Of a stretch of DNA of 64,000 nt, positions 1,641 to 61,103 are shown in pieces (within the stretch, counting starts at the first letter, position 1; each line of letters starts with the position of its first letter). The translations under genes were made by a program, and so were the position numbers. The stretch is from a bacterium. Its GTDB lineage: Bacteria > Patescibacteriota > Minisyncoccia > Phycocordibacterales > JAUSHB01. Where the stretch lies: contig JAUSHB010000010.1 in the NCBI GenBank assembly GCA_030648955.1, positions 13,556 through 77,555 on the forward strand, in the 5' to 3' direction. The notes beneath the pieces are model-generated. The model made no database searches and was not told the origin of the DNA. It was given only the letters and a program-made list of their open reading frames with translations.

Positions 1641-2585
1641 ATGGCCTCCATTAAAGAGCTGGGTGTTGTCAAGACAATCTTAACAACTTCATTATTATAT
1701 TTCCAAATATTGCATAAAATGTCAAGTTCTTGTACACTAAGTGCATTAAAATCTCATGTTAAACATCTGGGACTCGTGCCTATAAAAAAAACATTAAAAA
1801 AAGACGGATTTAATAAGGACTATATTAAACTCGTCTATTCAACACTTCCCCAGAAACTTGCCGACCAGCAAGTTTCTTTCATAATCAAAAAATTTAAGTT
1901 AAAGAAAGGTATGAAAATTCTTGATGTTGGATGCGGTAATGGTAGACACTCTTTAGAGTTTGCACGGGAAGGATACTCAGTGACAGGAATTGATTCTTCG
2001 AAAGATTTGATTGTGCTTGCAAAGAGGAATGCCCGAAAAGAAAAACTAACTATTAAATTTACCCAAAAAGATATGCTGTCACTTCCCTTTATTGAAGAAT
2101 TTGACGCAGTTATAAGTATATTTTCATTTGGTTTTCTTACTAAAAGAGACAATCATAAAATTGCAGTGGGAAAGCTTGCCCGTTCACTGAAAAAGGGAGG
2201 AAGGCTAATACTAGCAACAGGAAATTCTTTATTAAAAATTAAAAACGCAAGAAAGAATTGGATAAAAAATAAAAAGACTAGCTTAATTACAAATATCTCA
2301 AAAAAAATATTAGGCGATGGAATAGTAACTACCACAAAAGAAGTAGTTGATATTGTGTCAATGAAACAAGTGGTTGAGAGCACGTGGAAAGAAGGCGGGA
2401 AGATACATGTGCTAATGTCAACGATGCATCTTTTTACGCCCAATGAGATAAAAAAAATATTAACTGAGAGTGGATTACGTGTCGTGGGCATGTGGAGTGA
2501 TTTTGATAATTCTCATTTCTCACATAATTCTAAAAAACTTATTATTTCAGCAATTAAAAAAGAGTTGCCAGATAATATTAAATAA
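1641..2585 (+). CDS. class I SAM-dependent methyltransferase
   Basis: Motif I is ILDVGCGNGRHS, followed by the acidic-loop and post-I motifs typical of the Rossmann-fold methyltransferase family. The true start is probably downstream (for example the ATG at 1719), because 1641 lies only 2 nt from the divergent minus-strand start. Confidence 0.75.
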   Translation: MASIKELGVVKTILTTSLLYFQILHKMSSSCTLSALKSHVKHLGLVPIKKTLKKDGFNKDYIKLVYSTLPQKLADQQVSFIIKKFKLKKGMKILDVGCGNGRHSLEFAREGYSVTGIDSSKDLIVLAKRNARKEKLTIKFTQKDMLSLPFIEEFDAVISIFSFGFLTKRDNHKIAVGKLARSLKKGGRLILATGNSLLKIKNARKNWIKNKKTSLITNISKKILGDGIVTTTKEVVDIVSMKQVVESTWKEGGKIHVLMSTMHLFTPNEIKKILTESGLRVVGMWSDFDNSHFSHNSKKLIISAIKKELPDNIK

Positions 2586-2735
2586 AGGGGACTACGTTTG
2601 TAGTCCCCTTTTCACACTGCTGGTCATCGGTTAGATGTCCAGCTTGCCCTCCTTAGATCCCTTGACGAGAACCCGGAATTGGTCTTTTGACATTGCGATC
2701 GTATTGCCGAAGTCGTCGGTGACAACCACTTGCTT
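2579..2735. repeat. 157-bp direct repeat, copy B
   Basis: Identical to 1395..1551 except for one base (ccagTttgcc versus ccagCttgcc). Confidence 0.9.
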
Positions 2736-2897
2736 TGTAGACTCTGCAGTGTTGTCCGTGAAAATCTGTGGGCAACCATCGCACTTATCACCACATAAGG
2801 TCATGACAAGTTGCTTTTCTTTGCTATTCATATAAAGAACCTCGCTTTGATCTGTTACCAGGACAATCCCAGCAACCCTATTTTTAATGTACAGCAT
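2631..2897 (-). CDS. small Cys-motif protein (CGDKCDGCP), paralog of 1447..1638
   Basis: 88-aa ORF (the start may be an internal Met). It has a C-x3-C-x2-C motif followed by the shared C-terminal 35 aa and the same terminator hairpin. Confidence 0.5.
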   Translation of the reverse strand: MLYIKNRVAGIVLVTDQSEVLYMNSKEKQLVMTLCGDKCDGCPQIFTDNTAESTKQVVVTDDFGNTIAMSKDQFRVLVKGSKEGKLDI

Positions 2898-3032
2898 GAA
2901 AAAATTATGTCAACAGGCAATGGAAAATGGGCGTACGTATGGAAAAAACAATTTAAAAAGGATAGCCGTAGAAATACTTTCGGTCGTAAAGAAGGAGGCG
3001 AGACTTGTGGATACAATAAAAATCTATCGTCG

Positions 3033-4238
3033 TTACGACAAAATTTTTAATTCCTTTCCAATTAATTCACAACACTTTATAAGATACGCGATTTGATCAT
3101 TTGAATGTGTTGACATAACTGTTAATCTAAGTCTTGCTCGATGTTTAGGAACCGCGGGCCATCTTACACAAGGAGCGTAGATACCTTTATCAAGCAACAT
3201 TCTCGAAAACTCAATTGCTTGTTCGTCTTCTCCTATTAACACAGGAACAATTTGAGTTTGACTCCCCAATGTATCAAAACCAAGTGTATTTAATTTTGCC
3301 CTTAAATCATCTGATTTTTTATTTAATAAAACCCTCAGATTAGGTTCTGATTCTATAACCTCTAGAGAAGTAATGAGTGAAGCTGACACAGCGGGCGGTA
3401 GAGCTGCTGAAAATATATATGGTCTGCTTGCTATTCTTAAATATTTGATTAAATTTTTACTTCCCACTACAAATCCGCCAACTGAAGATAGTGCCTTGCT
3501 ATGTGTTCCCATTACAATATCAACATCAGTAGTTGGTTTTAAGTTAAAGTGCTCAAGTGTGCCGTGGCCATTTTTTCCAATCACTCCGGTGGCATGCGCT
3601 TCATCTACCATCAATAAAGAATTATATTTTTTGCATAAAGTTACTATTTTATCTAAGGGTGCTATATCACCCTCCATACTAAATACACCGTCAGTTACAA
3701 CTAATTTTCTTCTGTGTTTAAATTTTTTGAGCTTCTTTTCTAAATCATTCATATCACAATGCTTATAGACGACGACTTTTTGTCCGCTCGCTTTTGCACC
3801 ATCAACGATACTTGCATGATTCAAATCATCGCTTAGTATGACGCTTCTTCTCCTAAAAAAATCATATGGTCCAACCTTGAAGGGATTCATGACGGCGGAA
3901 ATAACACCAAGATTCGTTTGATACCCCGTAGAAAAAACAATTGCGTCTTCTCCCCCTTTAAATTTAGCTATAGCTAGTTCATACTCTCTGTGTACCTGTA
4001 AATTTCCTGACAACATCCTAGAACCTCCTGACCCGACTCCGTATTTCTTTGTAGCTTCAATTGCGGCTGCAACAACTTTTGGGTGCGTAGCTAGTCCAAG
4101 ATAGTTATTTGAAGAAAACATCAGTACCTTTTTTCCATTTATGATAACTTCTGGTTCCGCAGCCCCATCAATTACATGCAAATCGGGATAGAGATGGTGC
4201 TCCTCCACATACTGCATAATATCTTCGATACGTTTCAT
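3033..4238 (-). CDS. PLP-dependent acyltransferase of the glycine C-acetyltransferase (KBL) / 8-amino-7-oxononanoate synthase family
   Basis: 401 aa with the class-II aminotransferase fold. The lysine motif GTHSKALSSVGG and the FSSNNYLGL region are typical of KBL/BioF/SPT enzymes. Confidence 0.85.
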   Translation of the reverse strand: MKRIEDIMQYVEEHHLYPDLHVIDGAAEPEVIINGKKVLMFSSNNYLGLATHPKVVAAAIEATKKYGVGSGGSRMLSGNLQVHREYELAIAKFKGGEDAIVFSTGYQTNLGVISAVMNPFKVGPYDFFRRRSVILSDDLNHASIVDGAKASGQKVVVYKHCDMNDLEKKLKKFKHRRKLVVTDGVFSMEGDIAPLDKIVTLCKKYNSLLMVDEAHATGVIGKNGHGTLEHFNLKPTTDVDIVMGTHSKALSSVGGFVVGSKNLIKYLRIASRPYIFSAALPPAVSASLITSLEVIESEPNLRVLLNKKSDDLRAKLNTLGFDTLGSQTQIVPVLIGEDEQAIEFSRMLLDKGIYAPCVRWPAVPKHRARLRLTVMSTHSNDQIAYLIKCCELIGKELKILS

Positions 4239-4283
4239 ATACTTTTTGGACTATATTAAAACAGTCAAAATGAGTCTACTACA

Positions 4284-4334
4284 CCCCCAGAATACCAAAA
4301 ATCCCCCGATTTTTCAATGGGTTTGTGGGGATAT
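4284..4334 (-). promoter_or_regulatory. R-repeat copy 1 (promoter/operator-like), 46 nt upstream of the kbl-like start
   Basis: The minus strand reads TTGAAA-17 nt-TATTCT, with the spacer palindrome AAAAATC-GGGG-GATTTTT. It is one of six copies. Confidence 0.5.
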
Positions 4335-5690: not shown

Positions 5691-5717
5691 ACATAAAAAT
5701 TTTAACAAAGAATCTTA

Positions 5718-5768
5718 CCCCCAGAATACCAAAAATCCCCCGATTTTTCAATGGGTTTGTGGGGATAT
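5718..5768 (-). promoter_or_regulatory. R-repeat copy 2, between two convergent genes with no obvious target gene
   Basis: Identical to copy 1 over about 50 nt. Confidence 0.45.
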
Positions 5769-8083: not shown

Positions 8084-8147
8084 TATAATACTACCTTCGT
8101 AAGCAGATACTGTCAAGATGTATTATCTCTATACGTTCCAAATACCA

Positions 8148-8184
8148 AAAATTCCCCGGTTTTTCAATGACTTTGTGGGGATAT
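8148..8184 (-). promoter_or_regulatory. R-repeat copy 3 (variant), about 90 nt upstream of the RHH start
   Basis: ccaaataccaaaaattccccggtttttcaatgactttgtggggatat. Confidence 0.45.
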
Positions 8185-8912: not shown

Positions 8913-8937
8913 AGCGAAAAATTATATACCCCCAAAA

Positions 8938-8987
8938 TACCAAAAATCCCCCGATTTTTCAATGCTTCCGTGGGGATAGGTAATTAA
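8938..8987 (-). promoter_or_regulatory. R-repeat copy 4, directly upstream of the NYN gene
   Basis: A TATATAAT element lies about 8 nt before the ATG, so the transcript is probably leaderless or has a very short leader. Confidence 0.5.
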
Positions 8988-10190: not shown

Positions 10191-10240
10191 CACCCTAAAA
10201 ATACCAAAAATCCACTCGTTTTTCAACCCCGTGGTAGTCC
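10191..10240 (-). promoter_or_regulatory. R-repeat copy 5 (degenerate)
   Basis: ataccaaaaatccactcgtttttcaaccccgtggtagtcc. Confidence 0.35.
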
Positions 10241-10259
10241 ACACTGGGCAGATTATTAC

Positions 10260-10738: not shown

Positions 10739-10792
10739 ATACTATATCTTAGTACTATATTATAGTAATTGCAAGTCAATAAAAGTGGTTCT

Positions 10793-10849
10793 CTGGAGAT
10801 ACCAAAAATCCCCAGATTTTTCAATGCTTCCGCGGGATACCGCCTATCA
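10793..10849 (-). promoter_or_regulatory. R-repeat copy 6, about 55 nt upstream of the antitoxin start
   Basis: ctggagataccaaaaatccccagatttttcaatgcttccgcgggatacc. Confidence 0.45.
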
Positions 10850-13515: not shown

Positions 13516-13593
13516 AGATAAAATATGTCAATAGTGGCAAGTGGTAATAAATTCTTAGTATTTTGAAGGCTTTGTGGAAATAGAAAAAATAAT

Positions 13594-21047: not shown

Positions 21048-24000
21048 CTAATACCCGACCAGTAACTGTCCTTTGTCTGTCATCACCGTAACCACCGCAA
21101 TTCCCGGCTTTGATATTTTTATTTTTTTACTTTTTCCCTCTTCAACCTCATCCACAATCTTGGTTTCGTTGATTGCTTGTTTATATTTCGTTTCAATTTT
21201 GCGCATATCCTTAAGATGAATTTCTTGAGAGAGTGACTTTAGTATATCATTTTTGAATTTCCATTCATATTCGAGTGTTGTTTTTGGTGTTGCTGTGGCA
21301 ATGCCATTGTAGATGATCGTATTAAAAACAACCTTAATTTCCGTGGGTTCTTCTTCGTACTCAAGGAAAGGGATGTTGGTTGTGTTGCCTGCTTCGTCGG
21401 TAATCGTGGTGCTGGTTGCGGTGGTGTTTACCGTAGTGGATGAGAGATTATCGATGCCCGTGATAAAAAATTTGTTGGCAGCGGGGTCAAAAGTAAAACG
21501 TGCTTCTGGTGGGGTTGCATCATAGATAGTGGTACCGCCAAGAGTTGGTTTAAGTGTGGAATCGATTGTGTTATCGTTGTTGAAATCAATCGCGAGTGTA
21601 GTCGTAGTTGAAAGTACTCCTGTCCATGTAAGAGTCACTTGTGTGGTTGTAGCAGTGGGAATAGCTTCGTAGGTGGTGGAAGCCATGACAATGTCGCCAC
21701 GAAGCTCTTCAAGGTCAAGAGTGAACGAACCTGAAGCGTAGGCATCAAGTTTTACGGTATGCAAAGTATCGGCAGAAACAATGATAATTTTGGTATCACC
21801 AAGAGTGTAGTAAGTACTACCCTTGATGCCTTCTTCAATCAATCCCGTGGTCGTCGAGATACCAGTATGGTTGCCTGCTTGGTCATAGATGTTGAGGTTG
21901 AGGGGTGAATGAAGTTGATACTTGATATATGGTTTTGTGGAGACAAGTAATGAAGAATCATTGGTAATATATTGTTCAGGGGTCGAACTGCTTATGACAA
22001 TCGAATGGATGAAGGAGCGAAGGGGATCAACTTCAAGAATATTTTTGTGCTCACGGTCAATTGTTGATGTTAAATTGTTATACTTTCCCAAATCCACCCA
22101 CCACTTTTGCGTCATTGAAGAAGTCGGCATGAGATGCGCGCTTTCTTCCACCACTGTTTTGTCGCCGTTTAACGTTACCTTATCTTGAATTTTAATGACA
22201 TCAACATATCTCTCACAAATAATTGGTTGTGGTGCGCCGATTGTTTGCGGTGTCGATGGGGGATCTCTGGGGATACATACTTTATTCTTTTCGTAACGAA
22301 TCACCGCGGGAGTATATATCCCCCACCCTGCGATTTCATAAACCATAGTCGATGTGGCAGGAGTCCATTGGTCGAGCGTCGCGTGGATTGTTTCGGCGTT
22401 TGAAAGCAGGGTTGAATTTCCAATCGCAGGAGAAGAAAGATCGTCATAGGCAGGTACAGCCCGTCCGTCACCGCCCGTGAGATAATCTGCAAGCTCATCA
22501 TAGGTGTCGATGGTATCGCCATAACGTGCTGAGATTACGGGACTCACTGCGTTTCCTCCAAACTCAATGAGCGGCGTTGAGGAGCCGATGTATGCACGCG
22601 ATGGAAGGAGATTGTATCCCGTTGGCATATTGTGCAAAAGGTCACGAACGCGCTCCGCATCCATGAGAAAACCTAATGGACCAAGACTTCCGCCATGAAG
22701 AAGCTGGCCGACAGTGTCAGGCGTTCCTGCTTGGGGAACGGCGACAAAAATAACATTGTCGATTCTGTCGTAGAGGGGGTCGTTGGCCTCCTTCAGTTTT
22801 TGAATGAGCGCCTTGGTGACGAGTCCACCGTTTGAATGCGCAACGATGGTGACCTTTTGGGTCTTCGACGAATCCGCGAGTATTTTCAACTGCTTGTATA
22901 GGTAACTATTTGTGAACCCTTGCGGGGTACTGTATGAAATCCCGTCAGTTGATGTTGCGCCATTCTGAAGAATATCCTCGAGTGAGAGCCGCCAATCGTA
23001 TGCGATCATAGAGTAATCGTTGATGATGTGATCGGCTTCTTTCCACTTCTTGAGGTCGTTTATAAACGATTGGTAAATATTGGAAGCATATACTTCATCA
23101 ATAACACCAGCGGTGCCTTCTTTTGTGTATAACGAGTTAATGCTCTTCCCTGCTCCATTGAGTACGAGGCGTTGGTGATTGCAGTCCAGTATTGAAACCC
23201 AGCGTTCTTTTTCATTGTTAAATACTCCACAATCGCTGCTTTTTTCAAACAGTCTTGATCCCATCATCCCCGGCAAAAACAGAACGTTGGAATAACAGTC
23301 GGCGGTGCAGGGAGGGGGTATATTGTTCCACCCATCTTGTGTTGTCCACGGAAGATTATCCTGCCCGCCATAAAAAATATATGGCGAATCGCAGAAGTTG
23401 TCGTTATTTGAATCACTACAACCCTCTGCTGTCGTATCAAAGTTACTCCAGTAGTTGCCACCGATTGATGGGGTGAGATTAAAAACATTACCGTTGCCAC
23501 CATTGACACGAGCCTGCGTAAAGTTGCCGATAAGATTGTTGTTGTAAACTTGGTTGTTGTTGGAAGAGAATAGATAGATTCCGTAAACGTTATTGTTTGA
23601 TGCAGTGTTGTTTGTCAGAATGTTGTTACTGGATAAGGAAAATAAGATTCCATAAAAGTTGTTCCCTAACACAGTGTTGTTTGTCAGTGTGTTATTGTTT
23701 GAGGAACCATAGAGGAGAATTCCGGAGTTGTTGTTTGATGCGATATTGTTTGTCAGAACGTTATTGCTACTGGAAGAGTCGAGATAGATTCCAGAGTTAT
23801 TGTTTGAGGAATTTACGTTCGCAATTGTGGATGAGCTTGTTTGTATGAGAAATAAGCCGTTGTTTTTCTTCGTTATCGAACCGTCAATTGTGATATTGTT
23901 TATATTTGAACCGCCGGCGTTGCACAGTATCAATTCAGAAAAAGTTTCATTACTTAAGGTAACCGCGCTGTTGAAGTATCTGATTGGTCTCCCGCCGGAA

Positions 24001-24977
24001 CCAATAGTGTTGGTAATACTGTTGTCACAATGGCTATCTGACGATACTTGAACATGAAGGTCGTCGGAAGAGTTTTCCTGCGCAACATTGTTCATCAGAA
24101 TATTATTACTGGAAAAGTAGAGGTAGATTCCAAAACCATTTGAACTCGCGGTATTGTTGGTTAAAGTGTTGTTGTTACTAAGATATCCAAGAAAGATTCC
24201 GTAACTATTTGAGGTCGTAGTGTTGTTGGTTAAAGTGTTGTTGGATCCACGGAGTAAGATTCCATTCAAAAATTTCTTAACATTTAAATTCTTGATAGTA
24301 ACGCCAGTCCTTCCAGAAAATCCGGAAAGATAGACACCGTTTCCCGTATTGCTCCCGGTTAACATGTGGCTGTTGCCGTCAAGCGTTATGCCATTGCTGT
24401 CGATCTGAATGGTCTCGGTTAAATCCACATTCAGTGTGCAGGTTTTAATAGCGGAATCCCAGTTGCCAATCAAAGTGCAATCGCCGCCAGTGGCATCATC
24501 ACGAATGAACTTGGTGCTTTTGTGGGTTTGGATAAAGACAATGTGGGGAGTTGAAATGTCTTGCGTGTATGAATATGCGCCGTTTTCGTCAGTGGTAAAT
24601 TGAGTCAGGTTGTGATAATTGTCTTCATATTTATAGTAAGTGGTTGAGGTAGTAAAACCATAAAGGGTGATCTGGGTTGAGGTTGCAATTAAAAGAGCGG
24701 GCGACTCAATCGTCATTGTTACCATGTTGGGAACCGACTCCATTCTAAGTTTGATTACTTCTGTGCTGTCTAAACTGATATTTAAATATGCGCTGTCGGT
24801 GATAGAAAAGTTTGCGCTCGTACCTTCTACGACGCCTGATCGTGTCGATGGTTCAAACGATGGCAACTCTTGAGCTCTTGCGCGATCAGCGAATAAGAAT
24901 ACCCCTGCGACAAAAACCGCCGCAAGTACAAGATGGGGCGCAAAGAAAAACTGTGATTTTAGGTTCGATATATTCAT
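21048..24977 (-). CDS. giant secreted multi-domain protein: signal peptide, parallel beta-helix repeats, lipase-like alpha/beta hydrolase, C-terminal beta-rich domains
   Basis: Signal peptide MNISNLKSQFFFAPHLVLAAVFVAGVFLFADRARA. Repeated N-N-x-[TL]-x-N-N-T-A-S-N-N / GIYL units indicate a right-handed beta-helix. The motif VLFLPGMMGSRL ... VTIVAHSNGGLV is a G-H-S-x-G nucleophile elbow of the PGAP1/LCAT-like lipase type. The C-terminal 400 aa are Thr-rich and Ig-like. Confidence 0.8.
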   Translation of the reverse strand: MNISNLKSQFFFAPHLVLAAVFVAGVFLFADRARAQELPSFEPSTRSGVVEGTSANFSITDSAYLNISLDSTEVIKLRMESVPNMVTMTIESPALLIATSTQITLYGFTTSTTYYKYEDNYHNLTQFTTDENGAYSYTQDISTPHIVFIQTHKSTKFIRDDATGGDCTLIGNWDSAIKTCTLNVDLTETIQIDSNGITLDGNSHMLTGSNTGNGVYLSGFSGRTGVTIKNLNVKKFLNGILLRGSNNTLTNNTTTSNSYGIFLGYLSNNNTLTNNTASSNGFGIYLYFSSNNILMNNVAQENSSDDLHVQVSSDSHCDNSITNTIGSGGRPIRYFNSAVTLSNETFSELILCNAGGSNINNITIDGSITKKNNGLFLIQTSSSTIANVNSSNNNSGIYLDSSSSNNVLTNNIASNNNSGILLYGSSNNNTLTNNTVLGNNFYGILFSLSSNNILTNNTASNNNVYGIYLFSSNNNQVYNNNLIGNFTQARVNGGNGNVFNLTPSIGGNYWSNFDTTAEGCSDSNNDNFCDSPYIFYGGQDNLPWTTQDGWNNIPPPCTADCYSNVLFLPGMMGSRLFEKSSDCGVFNNEKERWVSILDCNHQRLVLNGAGKSINSLYTKEGTAGVIDEVYASNIYQSFINDLKKWKEADHIINDYSMIAYDWRLSLEDILQNGATSTDGISYSTPQGFTNSYLYKQLKILADSSKTQKVTIVAHSNGGLVTKALIQKLKEANDPLYDRIDNVIFVAVPQAGTPDTVGQLLHGGSLGPLGFLMDAERVRDLLHNMPTGYNLLPSRAYIGSSTPLIEFGGNAVSPVISARYGDTIDTYDELADYLTGGDGRAVPAYDDLSSPAIGNSTLLSNAETIHATLDQWTPATSTMVYEIAGWGIYTPAVIRYEKNKVCIPRDPPSTPQTIGAPQPIICERYVDVIKIQDKVTLNGDKTVVEESAHLMPTSSMTQKWWVDLGKYNNLTSTIDREHKNILEVDPLRSFIHSIVISSSTPEQYITNDSSLLVSTKPYIKYQLHSPLNLNIYDQAGNHTGISTTTGLIEEGIKGSTYYTLGDTKIIIVSADTLHTVKLDAYASGSFTLDLEELRGDIVMASTTYEAIPTATTTQVTLTWTGVLSTTTTLAIDFNNDNTIDSTLKPTLGGTTIYDATPPEARFTFDPAANKFFITGIDNLSSTTVNTTATSTTITDEAGNTTNIPFLEYEEEPTEIKVVFNTIIYNGIATATPKTTLEYEWKFKNDILKSLSQEIHLKDMRKIETKYKQAINETKIVDEVEEGKSKKIKISKPGIAVVTVMTDKGQLLVGY

Positions 24978-26428: not shown

Positions 26429-26450
26429 GGTTAAACCAATATTAAAGTTA

Positions 26451-26469
26451 AAAAATCAAAGTTTAAAAT
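26451..26469. repeat. AT-rich element core AAAAATCAAAGTTTAAAAT (family copy i)
   Basis: The same 19-mer, or its reverse complement, recurs at 37703-37721, 57190-57208 and, as a variant, at 60924-60956. Confidence 0.6.
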
Positions 26470-45376: not shown

Positions 45377-46776
45377 TTGAAAACAATGAACAACCTGAAA
45401 ATACCGCTAAGAAACGACTGGCTGGGGGAGATCAAAAGGCGTAGCCTTGAGCGTATGCGAAATACTGCTGAAAAGGAGCTGAATCCAAACCATTACCAAT
45501 TGTCGAGCGAGGCAAAGAAGAGACTATGCTGGATGTATGCGCTTTACAAAGAACAGGGCGGGAATGTGACTGTCGCTGCACGCAATATCGGGATTTCCAG
45601 ACAGTGGCTGTCGGAGCTGAAGGCAGTCTTTGAAAAGCACAGGAAAGATCCCCGCTCGCTTGAACCGGAATCGAAAGCTCCAAAGAATACGCGGAACAGA
45701 AAAAGGATATCGAAGGAAGTGGAGGGTAAGATACTGGAAGTGAGGGCTCTGTCAAAGAATGTGTGGGGAAAACAGAAGATTGCGGTGGTGCTTCTGCGAG
45801 ACCATCACATCGTCGTTGCCCCCAACACCGTGAACAAATATCTGCACAAACACAAGAAGATTGACCCAAAAATATCACTGAAGAATGAGCGTGCATGGAA
45901 AGCAAAATTGGAAAGAGAGAAACCGGAAGCAGAGTTGTTTGTAAGATACCGCCCGCCGAAAGCAATCAGAAAGCAATCAAGGATTTGGCACCGGGAGCAC
46001 TTGTGGAGAAAGACATGAAATATGCTGTAAAACCAAGCTCAAACGATACACACGGCACCGTGAGCAACTTCTGGTATCAACATACAGCAACAGATTCTTT
46101 TACGAGAATCCGAGCACTCACGCTCGCGAAAGACAGCACCGCAGATGGCTCTGCAATTGCGTATGCGGAGTCAAAAGAAAAGTTTCCATTCCGTACCGCA
46201 TGTGCGAACACCGACAATGGGAGCGAGAACAAGGGGGAGCTCCGCGAGATGCTCAAGAAAGATACCGTCTTCCACTTCTACTCAAACGCAGGGACTCCAA
46301 CTGACAATCCGAGAGTCGAGAGATCGCACCTCACGGATGAGCTTGAGTTCTACCAGAAAGGCGGTTTCAAGAAAACATTTGGGGAGCAACAAGAAGCGAC
46401 GGCAGTATGGGAGCACTTCTACAACTTCGTGAGACCGCATCAAGCACTGGGATACCTGACACCGATGGCATTCTATGAATTATGGAAAACGGATGAAGAA
46501 AGTGCGTTTGAAATCGTGGGGAAATATCAAAAGTATTTGGCGAAACAAAGTAAGAGGCTTGCGGGGGCGAGGAGGATTAAAAAGACGGAGCAAGTACAAA
46601 AACTTATGGAATTTATCGATGTAAAATTAAATCAAAAGGTCGGACTAAAAAGAGCTAAAGAAGCTCTGATCAACTGTCAATTATGTTCCATAGCTTGAAC
46701 ACAATCGAATGGCCTCACCAAAAATCTAAGTGTGGCAAGTATCGTGACCTCACGAAAAATCTAACTGTGAGATATT
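45377..46776 (+). mobile_element. insertion sequence 1: rve-type DDE transposase in two overlapping frames (orfA 45377..46018, orfB 45895..46698); ends not resolved
   Basis: orfA has an HTH and an IS481/IS3-like N-terminus (...VTVAARNIGISRQWLSEL...). orfB has an integrase-core DDE domain (...DNGSENKGE ... NPRVERSHLTDELEFYQ ... FVRPHQALGYLTPMAFYEL). orfB is in the -1 frame relative to orfA with a 124-nt overlap. A 65-bp block with two CCTCACsAAAAAT subterminal repeats sits at 46707-46771. Confidence 0.7.
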
Positions 46777-47826: not shown

Positions 47827-47942
47827 GAGTGACCTCCTAGGGTCGCGAGTGGTATCTATGGTGTTAAGGGGCTACTTTTCAGGTACGGTGATCTGTATCT
47901 AGGGGAGAGTATATATGAAGTGTGGCGTGTTGTAAATACCCC

Positions 47943-49263
47943 GAATGGCCTCACCAAAAATGTTACCAGCCAAGGTATCGTGACCTCACGAAAAAGGTTA
48001 CCAAGGATTAGTATTGGTGCATATGAAAATGCATACAAAACATGAAGTAACAAAAGAGATACTACCAAGATATTTAAAGGCCAGTAAAGACGAAAAGGGG
48101 AAAATTCTAGATGAGTTTGGAGCTATCACGGGATATCATAAAAAATCGGCGATTAGAAAACTACGAGAACTTCAAATGACTCCGCATAGTAAGGAAGGCA
48201 TAGCGGGGAAACATACGAGAAATCGTGAAAGAAAATACGACGGGTATGTCGAGGTTGTTGTGGAACAACTATATGAAGCTTTGGGTGGTATCGGTTCAAG
48301 AAGAATATATCCCTTACTTGAGACAATGATTGATAAAGGAATTGAGTTTGGACATATTAAAACTGATCCGATAACAGAAATGAAAGTTCGCGTCATGAGC
48401 AAAAGCACTCTTGATCGGATGATTACGCGGGTCAGAGAAAGAAATGCCATCAAAGGTATTTCAACGACCAGGCCGGGAACACTGTTGAAAAGCGAGATAC
48501 CGCTTCGGGTCGGCGTGTGGGAAGAAACAGATCCCGGGTTTTCCGAGATTGATCTGGTTGCTCACTGCGGAGACAGTGGTGCTGGAATGTTCATTTCGAC
48601 CTTAAATACCACGGATATTGCGACAGCTTGGTTTGAGGCGGAAGCTGTCATGGGTAAAGCTCAAGAACGCGTATTGGACGGTATGCGAGAGATTGAAGCG
48701 AGACTGCCTTTTACTCTCGCCGGTATCGATTCCGACAATGGATCAGAATTCATCAATCGTCAGTTGTATGGATATTGTTTAAAAAACAAAATCATTTTTA
48801 CCAGATCAAGGCCGTACAAGAAAAATGACAATGCACATATCGAGCAGAAGAATTATACGACCGTCAGACAAGTATTGGGATACCAAAGATTTGATACTGA
48901 AGAAGTACTTAAGCTGATGAAAACTTTGTATCGCGGACCGCTTCGATTGTACATTAATTTTTTTCAGCCTTCAGTAAAATGTGTGAAGAAAACAAGAATC
49001 GGTTCGAGAATCAAGAAAATATATGATGTGGCTAAAACTCCGTATGAACGAGTGCTTGCTCATCCAAAGATATCACAGAAAACAAAAGAGACGCTTACGC
49101 GTCTCTTTAAGAGTCTTGATCCATTCGAACTAAGAAAAGAAATTGATGTCTTGGTTAGAGAAATTCAAAAGCGCGGACGATGGCATTTGTGATATACTTT
49201 TTGCATTAAAAGTTAATCGCGCCCAGATTAATCCTCGGTAACATTCTTAGATGAGGTCATGCG
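47943..49263 (+). mobile_element. insertion sequence 2: single-ORF rve-type DDE transposase (48014..49192) with imperfect terminal inverted repeats
   Basis: Transposase of 392 aa with an N-terminal HTH and DDE residues in DLVAHCG / IDSDNGSEF / NAHIEQKN. The left end 47975-48010 (CGTGACCTCACGAAAAAGGTTACCAAGGATTAGTATTGG) matches the reverse complement of 49223-49263 (CGCATGACCTCATCTAAGAATGTTACCGAGGATTAATCTGG). The left end carries two subterminal direct repeats. Confidence 0.75.
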
Positions 49264-56225: not shown

Positions 56226-56684
56226 TTAGCGCACAGCGCCCGATATGATAATGCCGGCTAGTGCGATTAAAAGTCCTAATACAGTTATCGATCCAGCAAG
56301 AAATACGGCCCCTTTTCGTAACCCCTCATTCTGTGATAAATCTTGATTCATTTTCCATATAACGATCAGCAAAGCAAGGGCTGCAAAAGGAAGGAAGAGA
56401 AAAATATGTTCCTTTGCTTCCGTAAAAATTTTGTGCGCCCACGGATACGCTCCGGCAACAATTTTTGGCTTTTGAATATCTCCATAATACACAACGTAAT
56501 AGTAACCCCCTGAAAACCATGAGAAAAGATACGAGAAAAAAGAGATAAGCGAGGATTTCTTGAGGAAGGATACGGATGGAGATTTTTTGATAAGTTCCAA
56601 CCATACCGCATAGGACGCGGCAACAGCTATGATTCCAAGAATCACATGGGCGATCAAGGAAAATGTTAGTAGTGGGGTAATCAT
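56226..56684 (-). CDS. membrane protein (hypothetical)
   Basis: 152 aa with 4 TM segments. Confidence 0.4.
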   Translation of the reverse strand: MITPLLTFSLIAHVILGIIAVAASYAVWLELIKKSPSVSFLKKSSLISFFSYLFSWFSGGYYYVVYYGDIQKPKIVAGAYPWAHKIFTEAKEHIFLFLPFAALALLIVIWKMNQDLSQNEGLRKGAVFLAGSITVLGLLIALAGIIISGAVR

Positions 56685-57184
56685 GCTTTTGCGCTAGAGG
56701 ATTTTCTAATAAGATCCAGAATGATACTTCCCGCAATAACTGCGATCGTATAGTATAGCATCACCTCAAAATATGAATATGACTTCGCATTGGTAAGAAA
56801 AACTCCAACAATCAGAGCTCCATACCATGATACAAAAGAAAATGCACTTCCCCAATAGAGAGAAATTTTATGCGCCTGAAGGAGGAGCGCATTAGCGGCA
56901 ATAACAATGACAATAGTGAGTTTTGCCCAGAGAAGTGGATTATAAAGTTTGAATGCCTGCCCGTTCAGCTGATAGTAAAGAAGAAACCCGAAACCAGAAA
57001 GAAGGGCGAGGATGAGACCCACTCGCACTACTGTGAATGTTGTTTTAAGAAAATCACCTTCTACAGGGTCTACATGACCATCTCTAAGTGATTTGGTAAG
57101 AAAGATTTCAATAAACGTTGCCCCGCCTACACCGAGAACGGTTCCAATGAGATGAACGATGACGAGAAATATATAAATGTCCAT
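56681..57184 (-). CDS. membrane protein (hypothetical)
   Basis: 167 aa with 5 TM segments; its start overlaps the stop of the next gene by 4 nt. Confidence 0.45.
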   Translation of the reverse strand: MDIYIFLVIVHLIGTVLGVGGATFIEIFLTKSLRDGHVDPVEGDFLKTTFTVVRVGLILALLSGFGFLLYYQLNGQAFKLYNPLLWAKLTIVIVIAANALLLQAHKISLYWGSAFSFVSWYGALIVGVFLTNAKSYSYFEVMLYYTIAVIAGSIILDLIRKSSSAKA

Positions 57185-57316
57185 GTTATAAAATCAAAGT
57201 TTAAAAATCAAAGTGCAAAATGGCATTGTAAAATTTAAAATTTTAGAGACCTTTCCCTTTTATTTTGCATTTTTAATTGTCATTTTTAATTTTGATATTT
57301 ACATTTTACATTTTTC
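57185..57316. repeat. AT-rich palindromic element (family copy iii) between copZ and the membrane-protein operon
   Basis: Arm 1 AAAATCAAAGTTTAAAAATCAAAGTGCAAAATGGCATTGTAAAATTTAAAATTTT. Arm 2 TTTTGCATTTTTAATTGTCATTTTTAATTTTGATATTTACATTTTACATTTTT is roughly its reverse complement. Confidence 0.5.
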
Positions 57317-57523
57317 TTACGTCGCCGTATATCCAAGTTCCGCAATCGACTTAATAATAGCATCTTTAGTCACTTTTGCCGAGTCAAACTCTACCTCTCC
57401 TTTCTTTTTATCGTAATCGACAAAGATAGATTTAACGCCATCCATCCCGGATACAAGCATTTGTATGCCAGTCGCGCATGCCCCGCAGTGCATTCCTCCT
57501 ATATCAAGTGTTATTTTTTCCAT
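57317..57523 (-). CDS. copZ: copper chaperone CopZ (HMA domain)
   Basis: MEKITLDIGGMHCGACATGIQ contains the G-M-x-C-x-x-C motif. Confidence 0.8.
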   Translation of the reverse strand: MEKITLDIGGMHCGACATGIQMLVSGMDGVKSIFVDYDKKKGEVEFDSAKVTKDAIIKSIAELGYTAT

Positions 57524-57728
57524 AGTGTTTTTTTAATCAAAAGGGTTGTAATCACATAATCTTACATCTCCCTGCCAACAATTACCAAAATACTCGAGAG
57601 AATTAATTCTTTTACCTCCAAATAAACTGTCATGTTGCCACACCGGCAATAAACTAAGGACGAGGATACTTATTACAATTACGACACCGGACTTCATGCC
57701 CAACACTATATCACTTCTCTATACTACG

Positions 57729-57752
57729 CTCAATCGGCGGGACATAACGCTT
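57729..57752. repeat. 24-bp direct repeat CTCAATCGGCGGGACATAACGCTT (copy 1; copy 2 at 58139..58162 inside the copA 3' end)
   Basis: Exact 24/24 match. The pair brackets a 386-bp low-GC segment carrying ORF 57761..58084. Confidence 0.85.
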
Positions 57753-57760
57753 TTATATTT

Positions 57761-58084
57761 TTAAAAAATGATTATATGACCAAGCCAAATAAGAATAAAA
57801 AAGATATTAATAGAAAACGCAATAAAGCTAGCGATGACAAGCAAGGCATTAGGAGCATGTTCTCCTTTTTCTTGCTTTTCTTTTAAGGACTGCTGGCTAA
57901 ACATTGAAAGAATACCCACCGAAAAAGTAACAAAAATGATTACAACACTAATAGAAATTATTCCTACCCCGGAACATATATGATATTTGTAATTAATCAC
58001 CTCACAAAATGCCACCATAAAACCGAGAATAATCGATGTAATTACCACAAGGTGGTTTATATCTATATTTATTTTTTTCATCAT
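57761..58084 (-). CDS. small hydrophobic protein encoded on the low-GC insert
   Basis: 107 aa with 3 TM segments. Very AT-rich compared with the flanking copA. Confidence 0.4.
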   Translation of the reverse strand: MMKKINIDINHLVVITSIILGFMVAFCEVINYKYHICSGVGIISISVVIIFVTFSVGILSMFSQQSLKEKQEKGEHAPNALLVIASFIAFSINIFFILIWLGHIIIF

Positions 58085-58122
58085 AAAGTTTAATCGCGTT
58101 AGATGTTATAGAATTTGAATAA

Positions 58123-60468
58123 TTACTTAACGCCCTTCTCAATCGGCGGGACATAACGCTTGAGGAGGAGGGAGTTGAGAACGACTGATACTGATGAGAA
58201 TGCCATGGCGAATCCCGCGATTTCTGGGCGGAGCGTTGCTTGCGAGAGGCTCAAGAAATATGTTCCGAATCTTCCCAAGTTTTCACTCATCACAATCACC
58301 CAAGCCGCGGGGACGCCACCCACGAACGCAGTCTTTGTTATCAGGAGATGAATTCCTCCGGCGACTGGAATAGCAATAACGTTATAAAAGAACGCCCAGA
58401 AAAGATTCTGCCAAACTTTCTTAATTGTTTTTCCGGAAAGTTGGATCGCGGTCACCACGTCGCGAAGATCGTCTTTCACGAGCACGATTTCGCCCGTTTC
58501 AATAGCGACATCAGTTCCCGAACCGATTGCAATACCGACATCCGCTTGCGCAAGCGCAGGCGAGTCATTAATACCGTCTCCCACCATCGCGACAGTTTTT
58601 CCTTCTGCCTGAAGCTGTTTAACCATTTTTGCTTTATCTTGCGGCAACACTTCCGCCATCACCCGATCGATGCCGACTTCACGTCCGATCGCTTCTGCTG
58701 TTTTTTTATTATCGCCAGTAATCATCACGATCTCTTTGCCCATTTTTTTCAATTCCGCGATAGCTTCTTTTGCAAATGGCTTCAATGTGTCCGCCATTGC
58801 GATCATCGCGGTAGGAATTCCATCGACTGCCATAAACACAACTGTTTTTGCTTCGCCCTGCAATGTATCAACCTTATCTTGGTATAAAGCAATATCAATA
58901 CCGAGGTTTTTCATATACGCAGGATTTCCAATTTCAACTTTCTTATCGCTTCCCTTATCAAAAACCATCCCATACACGCCGTATCCAGAAATAGCTTTAA
59001 AATCTTTCGGCGATACGAGTTCCCCTTGCGCTTTTCCTTTCTCAATGACTGCGCGGGCAAGAGGATGTTCGGATCCTTGTTCTACGGACGCCGCGAGGAA
59101 TACTGCTTCCCCCTCATCAACTTGGGCTAATGGAAGCATGAGAAAATTTGTTACCACTGGCTTTCCTATTGTAAGTGTTCCCGTTTTATCAAACACAATC
59201 GCCGTAACCTTGTATGCTTTTTCAAGCGCTTCGCCGCCCTTCAAAATAATTCCATATTTTGCCGCACGTCCGATTCCCACCACGAGCGCTGTCGGTGTCG
59301 CAAGACCCATGGCGCACGGGCACGAGATCACGAGCACTGCAATCGTCGTCATGAGCGCCGCCCTAAACGGCAGCTCCGCAATGAAATACCAGCCGACAAA
59401 AACCAATATCGAAAGAACCACCACGGCAGGCACGAAGTATTCGCTGATTTTATCCACAAGATCCTGAATGGGGGCGCGAGATGCCTGTGCTTCTTCAACC
59501 ATTCTGACAATTTGAGATAAAAGCGTGTTTTTCCCGACTTTGGTCGCTTTGAACCTAATAAGTCCTTCTTGGTTTATGGTGGCGCCGATTACTTCTTCTC
59601 CGACACCCTTGCCAACCGGAAATGATTCTCCTGTTACTACCTTTTCATCAATATGAGTCCTCCCTTCAACAATAATGCCGTCCACGGGGATTTTCTCTCC
59701 CGGACGCACCACAACAATATCTCCCTCTTTAATTTCATTGATGGGAACCGTCATTTCCTTTCCATCGCGCACCACATGAGCTTCTTTTGCTTCAAGCTTA
59801 AGAAGTTCTTTGATAGCGTTTGACGCTCTCCCGCGCGCGAGCACTTCAATGTATCTGCCGAGAAGAATAAACACGAGAAGCGCAGCAGAGCTTTCCCAAA
59901 ATGGATGGCTTATATTAAACCAAAGGAATCCGATCATACTATAAAAATATGCGGCGGAAGTTCCGAGGACTACGAGCACATCCATATTTGCCGATCCGAC
60001 ACGAATCGCCGTGAATGCATTCCTATAAAATGACCAGCAAATAACAAATTGAATGGGCGTTGAAAGTATCCAGTAGAAGTAATTGAGATCGATCCCCCAG
60101 AGCTGATGCACGTGCTGGAGATTGAACATATGAACCGCCATGTAATACACAACAATGGGAGCGGCCAAAATAAATGCCGCGATCACGCGGTTTCGCGCCT
60201 GTTTGATCTGTTTTGCTTCTTTTTGTTCTTCTTCTTCGATCGTTGCGCTCTCTTCATCGGGACGAATCACATCATATCCGAGCTTATTGACAAACGCGTC
60301 AATTGTTTCGAGAGAAATTTTTGATTCATCAAACTCAATCGCTGTTTTTGCCGAGCCATAATTTGTTTTTACGCTCGTGACACCCGGCTGCTTGCCAACC
60401 AACTTGTCGATGAGAATCGAACACGATGCGCAATGCATTCCTTTTACTTTGAGTACTAGTTTTGCCAT
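58123..60468 (-). CDS. copA: copper-translocating P1B-type ATPase
   Basis: N-terminal HMA (GMHCASCS), a CPC motif in the TM region (SCPCAMGLATP), DKTGTLT and GDGINDSPAL. Confidence 0.9.
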   Translation of the reverse strand: MAKLVLKVKGMHCASCSILIDKLVGKQPGVTSVKTNYGSAKTAIEFDESKISLETIDAFVNKLGYDVIRPDEESATIEEEEQKEAKQIKQARNRVIAAFILAAPIVVYYMAVHMFNLQHVHQLWGIDLNYFYWILSTPIQFVICWSFYRNAFTAIRVGSANMDVLVVLGTSAAYFYSMIGFLWFNISHPFWESSAALLVFILLGRYIEVLARGRASNAIKELLKLEAKEAHVVRDGKEMTVPINEIKEGDIVVVRPGEKIPVDGIIVEGRTHIDEKVVTGESFPVGKGVGEEVIGATINQEGLIRFKATKVGKNTLLSQIVRMVEEAQASRAPIQDLVDKISEYFVPAVVVLSILVFVGWYFIAELPFRAALMTTIAVLVISCPCAMGLATPTALVVGIGRAAKYGIILKGGEALEKAYKVTAIVFDKTGTLTIGKPVVTNFLMLPLAQVDEGEAVFLAASVEQGSEHPLARAVIEKGKAQGELVSPKDFKAISGYGVYGMVFDKGSDKKVEIGNPAYMKNLGIDIALYQDKVDTLQGEAKTVVFMAVDGIPTAMIAMADTLKPFAKEAIAELKKMGKEIVMITGDNKKTAEAIGREVGIDRVMAEVLPQDKAKMVKQLQAEGKTVAMVGDGINDSPALAQADVGIAIGSGTDVAIETGEIVLVKDDLRDVVTAIQLSGKTIKKVWQNLFWAFFYNVIAIPVAGGIHLLITKTAFVGGVPAAWVIVMSENLGRFGTYFLSLSQATLRPEIAGFAMAFSSVSVVLNSLLLKRYVPPIEKGVK

Positions 60469-60486
60469 ACATTATTTATTATTATA

Positions 60487-60918: not shown

Positions 60919-61103
60919 GGCTACAAAATCAAATTTTAAAAATCAAAAATTAAAGTCACAATGTAAAGATAAAAATTAAAACATTAACATGCGCCTGTTA
61001 AGTCTTATAATCCTCTTACGTTTATAATTCCGATTTTACCATTCATTACTTTTAAATTTTCAATTGTCATTTTGCATTTTGACATTTACATTTTTATTTT
61101 TTG
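60919..61103. repeat. AT-rich palindromic element (family copy iv)
   Basis: CAAAATCAAATTTTAAAAATCAAAAATTAAAGT ... TTTTGCATTTTGACATTTACATTTTTATTTTTTGTCATTTA. Confidence 0.5.

Follow-up and report, generated by a model that had tools for sequence, protein, structure and literature searches.

How does a gene come to lie between the copper-transporter gene copA and a second copy of that gene's own 3' end? The question is raised by a locus on contig JAUSHB010000010.1 (GenBank assembly GCA_030648955.1) of a member of the Patescibacteria, within a stretch of 64,000 nucleotides (forward-strand positions 13,556 to 77,555) that is called the window here. Of this genome, the 64-kb window is the part that was searched, and positions given without a locus name refer to it. 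Reading along the minus strand, copA is followed by a foreign segment with one small gene, orf107, by a 42-nt remnant of a copA 3' end, by the small gene orf57 and by copZ. The answer we favour, with moderate confidence, is that recombination between two copA loci has left a scar here. The evidence comes from the repeat itself, from a relative (L004) in which the same operon lacks the foreign segment, from the two kinds of copA tail found at the locus and from a survey of other Patescibacteria copA genes.

The repeat, its empty site and the cargo gene

Within the window there are exactly two occurrences of the 24-mer CTCAATCGGCGGGACATAACGCTT, at positions 57729-57752 and 58138-58161, and 100 dinucleotide-preserving shuffles contained no match to it, with up to three mismatches tolerated. 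Read on the minus strand, both copies are AAGCGTTATGTCCCGCCGATTGAG and code for KRYVPPIE (AAG CGT TAT GTC CCG CCG ATT GAG). An earlier reading of the locus, made from the sequence only, had recognised the perfect pair, although it placed the second copy one base too high, at 58139-58162; likewise, it described the intervening DNA correctly as AT-rich with a 107-aa membrane protein as its sole open reading frame (ORF), while giving its length as 386 instead of 385 bp (57753-58137). The GC content of this segment is 0.296, against 0.468 for copA, which bears out the view of that reading that the insert is compositionally foreign. The arrangement is found again, identical base for base and with both junctions included, in a contig of 5969 bp (L001) from a separate Logan assembly of sequencing run SRR13727527, which may have used the same reads as the window. 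The k-mer size of Logan assemblies is 31, longer than the 24-bp repeat, so that each copy would be bridged together with both of its flanks. The features of the locus, all on the minus strand, are as follows.

58123-60468, minus: copA, P1B-type Cu+ ATPase of 781 aa, assigned from the ORF, Pfam and motifs; present C-terminus ...KRYVPPIEKGVK-stop
58138-58161, minus: upstream copy of the 24-bp repeat, within copA, coding for KRYVPPIE
58123-58137, minus: present copA tail AAG GGC GTT AAG TAA (KGVK-stop), the first 15 nt of the insert as earlier defined
57753-58122, minus: foreign DNA proper, 370 bp with a GC content of 0.29, made up of a 38-nt spacer, orf107 and 8 nt
57761-58084, minus: orf107, 107 aa with three hydrophobic helices, sole gene of the insert
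57729-57752, minus: 24-bp repeat, downstream copy, which opens the copA 3' remnant; in L004 its aligned counterpart is the true 3' end of copA
57711-57728, minus: remnant tail CGT AGT ATA GAG AAG TGA (RSIEK-stop), in frame after the downstream copy; homologous to CGT AGC ACA GAG AAG TGA (ERSTEK-stop) of L004
57705-57733, minus: promoter-like site TTGAGC-17-TATAGT with a TG extension, a match from a consensus scan only
57533-57697, minus: orf57, small membrane protein of 54 aa counted from the ATG, with a C-x7-C motif; common only to the window and L004
57317-57523, minus: copZ-like heavy-metal-associated chaperone of 68 aa (Pfam HMA, 2.8e-15), syntenic in all relatives

That an insertion has taken place can be checked against the copA 3' ends of relatives, all the close ones of which come from groundwater metagenomes and from metagenome-assembled genomes of Patescibacteria of the Parcubacteria/Paceibacteria type. 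L004 (JGI contig Ga0209542_10078387), whose CopA shares 96% amino acid identity with that of the window at a nucleotide identity of about 88%, is a precise empty site. It aligns with window positions 60469 to 58138 and 57752 to 57317, and in L004 the two alignments overlap by exactly the 24-mer, which is single-copy there. The copA gene of L004 ends in ...RYIPPIERSTEK-stop and is followed by TATAGTGTTGAGG, a homologue of orf57 and then copZ. The ancestral end that had been proposed from the window itself, ...RYVPPIERSIEK-stop, agrees with this actual end. In terms of the window sequence, the empty-site allele would be a direct join of ...CCGATTGAG to CGTAGTATAG; in the window as it stands the end ...EKGVK-stop of copA is followed by TTATTCAAATTC..., leading to orf107.

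The cargo gene orf107 has a GC content of 0.31, the lowest among the 63 window ORFs of at least 80 aa, and at the composition of the insert the probability of 107 codons without a stop is about 2e-4; orf107 is probably a real gene, recently acquired. It belongs to no family in a Pfam search, and it matched only itself both in a word-indexed search of 5.8e9 proteins and in a phmmer search of 1.84e9 representative proteins. Viral contigs contained no relative, and neither phmmer nor blastn comparison of orf107 and the insert with the window and with the ORFs and DNA of about 175 related loci revealed any similarity. The gene is absent, without a trace, from the 12 closest copA loci. Being an orphan, the cargo is uninformative on function or origin. 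In the viral contigs, the pattern coding for KRYVPPIE was also looked for, and the one match (L166), inside an unrelated phage protein of 957 aa, was set aside as due to chance.

Two copA tails and the proposed join

The majority arrangement among the 12 closest loci is a copA gene separated from copZ by 18-20 nt, as seen in 8 of them. In seven of these eight, copA ends in K-x-x-[KR]-stop, with tails such as KDVR, KNIK, KDSK, KNSK and KGSR, while the eighth, L167, has RSSR-stop. Proteins with the K-x-x-[KR]-stop tail are P0004 and P0006-P0010; the tail RSIEK-stop resembles that of P0005. The KGVK-stop of the window fits the majority pattern in length and end residues, and at the nucleotide level 8-10 of its 15 nt are identical to the tails of six relatives. 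For random 15-mers drawn from the window, the probability of fitting the pattern is 3-4e-4, and an identity of at least 10 out of 15 with any of the six tails is reached in 1-3% of cases. Since KGVK-stop fits the native pattern, the first 15 nt of the supposed insert are a genuine allelic copA tail, and the foreign DNA proper begins past the copA stop, at 57753-58122. The window copA does end in EKGVK-stop, as had been read from the sequence; this end is a native type of copA tail, not a by-product of the insert. The locus contains two allelic native copA 3' ends, the majority type on the intact gene and the L004 type as a 42-nt remnant (57711-57752).

What lies between copA and copZ is variable: L004 has orf57, L002 and L007 have an ORF of 260 aa, and the window has both orf107 and orf57. 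The 260-aa ORF (L002, 3085-3867; L007, about 2290-3080) stands in the slot without a copA remnant, has N-terminal hydrophobic segments and a Cys-rich C-terminal part, and matches no Pfam family. The protein of orf57 is a conserved small membrane protein of 54 aa carrying the motif C-x7-C (…CWQGDVRLCDYNPFD). Of the 12 closest relatives, only L004 has the gene (3230-3400), which is itself an insertion with respect to the majority arrangement of copA, 20 nt and copZ.

The proposed course of events would be the following. The resident state would have been like that of L004, with copA ending in ...IERSIEK-stop, followed by orf57 and copZ. The incoming DNA would have come from another copA locus, bringing either the 3' end or the whole of copA with the majority tail ...IEKGVK-stop, followed by the AT-rich orf107. 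Most likely, it would have been anchored by homology in the highly conserved copA gene, with its far end rejoined to the resident copA 24 nt before the conservation between the alleles stops. This second junction may have been an illegitimate or short-homology join; alternatively, a small circle may have integrated by a Campbell-type single crossover inside the 24-nt block of identity. Linear homology-facilitated illegitimate recombination and crossover of a small circle would have equivalent outcomes, and the data do not separate them. Either way, the product would be a copA gene with the donor tail, then orf107, then a resident remnant of 42 nt (the 24-mer plus RSIEK-stop), then orf57 and copZ. 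Of the two mechanisms that the sequence-only reading had offered, insertion mediated by homology or microhomology is thus the better option; site-specific integration has gained nothing favourable beyond the repeat itself.

The persistence of the remnant would have two explanations, both probable: it carries a promoter-like element that would keep orf57 and copZ expressed, and it would be too short for efficient homologous deletion. The site TTGAGC-17-TATAGT, upstream of orf57 and copZ, reaches from the end of the downstream repeat copy across the remnant tail; from consensus matches, the remnant may have a promoter role. The sequence gTGATATA(C/G)T, which resembles an extended -10 element, directly follows the copA stop in 6 of the 10 relatives listed (L005, L168, L169, L170, L171 and L173), with variants in L003 (atgatatact), L004 (tgatatagt) and the window (57705-57716). 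It sits 10-11 nt upstream of the ATG of copZ, or of orf57, and its position suggests an internal promoter with a near-leaderless transcript.

Recurrence at other copA loci and rival explanations

About 150 Patescibacteria copA loci with usable downstream sequence, from metagenome contigs and GTDB genome contigs, were surveyed for sequence downstream of copA that repeats the 3' end of the gene. The layout of an intact copA, a cargo and a copA 3' remnant was found at four more independent loci, listed here with positions in their own contigs.

L035, 2364-3130: HicB and HicA (Pfam); repeat of 86 nt, 85% identity
L137, 1744-2659: pair of DUF433 and DUF5615/Mut7-C proteins; repeat of at least 49 nt, 94% identity, reaching the contig end
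L125, 838-1995: membrane ORF of 319 aa; repeat of 30 nt, 90% identity, tail included
L060, 3100-3260: non-coding segment of about 70 nt that contains a hairpin, followed by a second PPIEK...; repeat of 17 nt, 94% identity

The start of the remnant differs from locus to locus, lying between 7 and about 96 nt upstream of where the conserved PPIE ends, and none of the five inserts contains an integrase, a transposase or a terminal inverted repeat. In L035 and L137 together, the repeat copies differ at 11 codons; 10 of these differences are synonymous, and the remaining one is a natural M/I polymorphism. Under neutral change about 26% would be expected to be synonymous, so that the probability of this outcome is about 1e-5 if all change was neutral, and 0.03 if 60% is expected to be synonymous. 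The bias implies that both copies stem from functional copA alleles and not from a duplication in place followed by decay; by this codon comparison, the two copies in L035 and L137 are read as a donor and a recipient allele. The closest relatives of the HicA cargo of L035 (88% and 80% identical) are found in other contexts, without flanking direct repeats.

These observations also bear on what else could have produced the locus in the window. Unrelated DNA might have entered a staggered break in copA, with repair duplicating 24 bp in place and KGVK-stop arising by coincidence and being kept as CopA stays functional. The repeat is indeed perfect, the outer flanks are the original neighbours as judged by L004, and insertions that lack mobility genes and have repeats tens to hundreds of bp long are documented for restriction-modification units (PMC2853133). 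Such a coincidence would have to overcome both chance figures given above, for the tail pattern and for the nucleotide identity of the tail, and the almost purely synonymous differences in L035 and L137 speak for two functional alleles, so that we regard this origin as possible but doubtful. Less credible still, and in our view unlikely, is site-specific integration of a non-autonomous cassette, its attP consisting of the 24-bp core plus a replacement copA tail, by a tyrosine or serine recombinase encoded elsewhere, with the two 24-mers as attL and attR. It would account for the perfect identity of a core in which relatives differ at 2-4 sites and which is single-copy at the empty site of L004, for the compact cargo and for the substitute 3' end supplied to the target gene; many integrative islands that target the 3' ends of genes bring such a substitute. 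The four other copA-end loci with cargo, two of them with toxin-antitoxin pairs, would fit as well, toxin-antitoxin pairs being typical cargo of islands and cassettes. Yet neither the insert nor its operon neighbours contain a recombinase gene, and within the scanned part of the window, integrase-like ORFs are limited to a pair of DDE (rve) proteins at a distance of about 9-12 kb. The 24-mer is present just twice in the window, no second copy of the insert or of orf107 was found in any of the protein, viral-contig and related-locus searches described above, and the insert ends show neither an attC-like hairpin nor an inverted repeat. Moreover, the repeats start at five different places in copA at the five loci and vary in length between 17 nt and at least 86 nt, which argues against one defined attachment site; the cargo differs between the copA-end insertions, and the HicA relatives of L035 occur elsewhere without flanking repeats.

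The polarity of the event might also be reversed, the window being an old structured region in the ancestral state and orf107 having been lost in the relatives. Recombination between the 24-bp repeats would then be expected to yield exactly the state of L004. We hold this to be very unlikely: traces of orf107 are present at none of the 12 closest copA loci, eight of which have copA and copZ 18-20 nt apart, the gene is an orphan with the lowest GC content in the window, the repeat copies are identical, and no relative with a diverged orf107 between diverged repeats was found. The least probable of all is a chimeric assembly, with two co-occurring strains joined through a common 24-mer, a thought prompted by the source being a metagenome-assembled genome and by the different allelic types of the two tails. 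The Logan contig is identical across both junctions, with the proviso on shared reads already given, and the junction from the end of orf107 to the 24-mer must be present in the reads regardless; we give a chimera hardly any credence.

Several known types of element were considered and rejected. For an insertion sequence, a transposon or a miniature inverted-repeat transposable element, no inverted repeat pairs the ends of 57753-58137, the sole ORF has no Pfam match, the insert is unique in the window and the 175 related loci, and the duplication measures 24 bp; the known target duplications of insertion sequences are about 2-14 bp long, which 24 bp exceeds. The judgement of the sequence-only reading that 24 bp is too long for an ordinary target duplication of this kind holds, and the insert is also without terminal inverted repeats and transposase. 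As an integron cassette the insert would lack an attC site (there are 8 nt between the stop of orf107 and the repeat) and a suitable inverted repeat, and no intI or attI was seen. Integration of the dif/Xer type or in the manner of a casposon was discarded, with no palindromic arms and no associated enzyme gene. The window contains no tRNA genes that could have served as nearby integration targets.

Recombination between two copA loci, the explanation that we prefer, also has points weighing against it. No donor locus, that is, a copA gene with the KGVK tail followed by orf107 and without the remnant, was found. The closest relatives have a nucleotide identity of about 88%, and no mosaic breakpoint was mapped within copA, whose identity to six relatives is flat, at 80-96% along the gene. 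Between relatives, the 24-mer differs at 2-4 synonymous sites; for a donor and a recipient as far apart as this, identity at 24 out of 24 positions would be expected in only about 5% of cases. Its occurrence implies a very close donor or a crossover that requires a block of identity, and the core of an integrase or a duplication in place would give the same perfect identity. The promoter is a consensus match only, from a scan with 8 hits for the region, where shuffles gave 4.5 +/- 2.3. Finally, the cargo gene ends a few nt from the remnant in all five loci, which is tidier than random illegitimate joins would be.

Among described systems, the closest counterpart is the class named insertion with long target duplication, in which restriction-modification units lie between long direct repeats of variable length whose target is single-copy in a relative (Furuta, Abe and Kobayashi 2010, Nucleic Acids Res 38:2428, PMC2853133). 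According to the same paper, which cites Nobusato et al. 2000 for the first description, there are no mobility genes, some cases have low-GC inserts or repeats overlapping the 3' ends of genes, the mechanism is unknown, and a target duplication of more than 30 bp serves as threshold (PMC2853133). The window shares with this class direct repeats that are single-copy in an empty-site relative, the lack of a transposase or integrase, a repeat length that changes from case to case, overlap with the 3' end of the upstream gene and a low-GC insert. It differs in that its repeat, at 24 bp, stays below 30 bp, while those of L035 (86 nt) and L137 (at least 49 nt) pass the threshold, and in that its cargo is an orphan membrane ORF and not a restriction-modification unit; toxin-antitoxin pairs, like restriction-modification units, are regarded as addiction modules. 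A further difference concerns the window, L035 and L137, where different functional alleles of the target are the sources of the two copies or of the sequence continuing them; this points to recombination of a donor with a recipient rather than duplication of one target sequence. As a description, insertion with long target duplication without a mobility gene is the class to which the locus belongs, and the mechanism at this locus would be the one proposed above.

In events described as homology-facilitated illegitimate recombination, the usual outcome is loss of recipient DNA on the far side of the anchor, not duplication of part of it. The likeness of the locus to this process in natural transformation (PMC3240628) consists of one homologous anchor, here copA, combined with one illegitimate or short-homology junction, and of the capture of foreign DNA beside a conserved gene without an enzyme encoded by an element. 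With the integrative islands that target the 3' end of a conserved gene, such as a tRNA or tmRNA gene, the locus has in common that the repeats represent the 3' end of the target, that the end borne by the element keeps the gene intact and that the displaced end is left as a remnant at the far junction; unlike them, it consists of 385 bp with a single orphan gene, no integrase and no other copies, and the extent of the repeat varies over the five loci. To integron cassettes, which typically hold orphans and toxin-antitoxin pairs, it is similar in its small, compact, promoterless-looking single-gene cargo, and integron insertion is not known to duplicate 24 bp of a target gene.

The copper operon, other repeats in the window and significance

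The copA gene at the centre of the locus codes for a CopA-type P1B Cu+ ATPase, with an N-terminal HMA domain and the motifs CPC (residue 383), DKTGT (427) and GDGxND (630); Pfam finds HMA, E1-E2_ATPase and Hydrolase domains in the identical protein P0002. Across these bacteria, CopA proteins are 70-97% identical. The order of the operon, which is syntenic in relatives, is thioredoxin-like, DsbD-like, cupredoxin, copA, copZ, three small membrane ORFs and a flavodoxin-like reductase. A scan of the coding strand between copA and copZ revealed no terminator-like site, and co-transcription of orf107 with the copper operon is plausible. No structured RNA was matched in positions 56500-59000 by an Rfam search at a permissive threshold. 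In another copA locus, L102 (5750-5771), the copA tail forms a perfect inverted match of 18 nt with the sequence 4-21 nt past the stop, which could be a terminator hairpin that includes the coding tail.

Elsewhere in the window, several other repeats were observed. A dispersed family of about 52 nt (ACCCCCAGAATACCAAAAATCCCCCGATTTTTCAATGGGTTTGTGGGGATAT) is present at 4283-4334, 5717-5768, 8133-8184, 8928-8979, 10192-10243 and 10790-10841; two of its copies are 100% identical, and the unit has an inverted repeat within it, AAAAATCCCCCGATTTTT. A regulatory or RNA motif is one possible explanation of the family, a miniature repeat element another. A direct repeat of 156 nt with 99% identity is located at 1396-1551 and 2580-2735, 1184 bp apart. 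Tandem units of 69 nt, 61-84% identical, occupy 23553-23759 and 24125-24243 within an ORF of 1309 aa (21048-24977, minus strand), suggesting a repetitive protein of the surface type. In AT-rich intergenic DNA, a motif like AAAATCAAAGTTTAAAAATCAAAG is found at 57176-57220, 60925-60955 and 26438-26468, upstream of an ORF of 167 aa and of the cupredoxin-copA unit, and could be an operator or promoter motif of the copper operon. Two ORFs with DDE integrase cores (rve or rve_3), at 45895-46698 and 48014-49192 on the plus strand, flank two small ORFs. An exact repeat in two parts, CGAATGGCCTCACCAAAAAT ... GTATCGTGACCTCACGAAAAA, lies past the first of them (46706-46759) and again before the second (47942-47995), 1236 bp apart; these repeats are probably the ends of an insertion sequence or part of a composite structure.

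We do not class the locus as a mobile element; it points to no new kind of element or enzyme, and in kind it is ordinary genome evolution. A bolder proposal, to which we assign a low probability, is that recombinase-free hitch-hiker cassettes exist in Patescibacteria, in which toxin-antitoxin pairs or small membrane orphans move together with a short stretch copied from the copA 3' end, their homology arm. Such cassettes would enter any copA gene through a single crossover carried out by the recombination system of the host, and a widely transferred metal-resistance gene would serve as a shared attachment site, with an intact copA and a downstream promoter regenerated each time. Quite apart from this, the window provides a clean case, complete with its empty site, of a gene gained in a compact operon of a bacterium with a reduced genome, without the machinery of a mobile element, and in which the target gene and a putative downstream promoter are both able to survive the insertion. 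It adds, together with the other loci, examples outside restriction-modification to the poorly understood class of insertions with long target duplication. Five independent loci, two of them with toxin-antitoxin cargo, suggest that the conserved and frequently exchanged end of copA is a recurrent point of entry for accessory genes in Patescibacteria.

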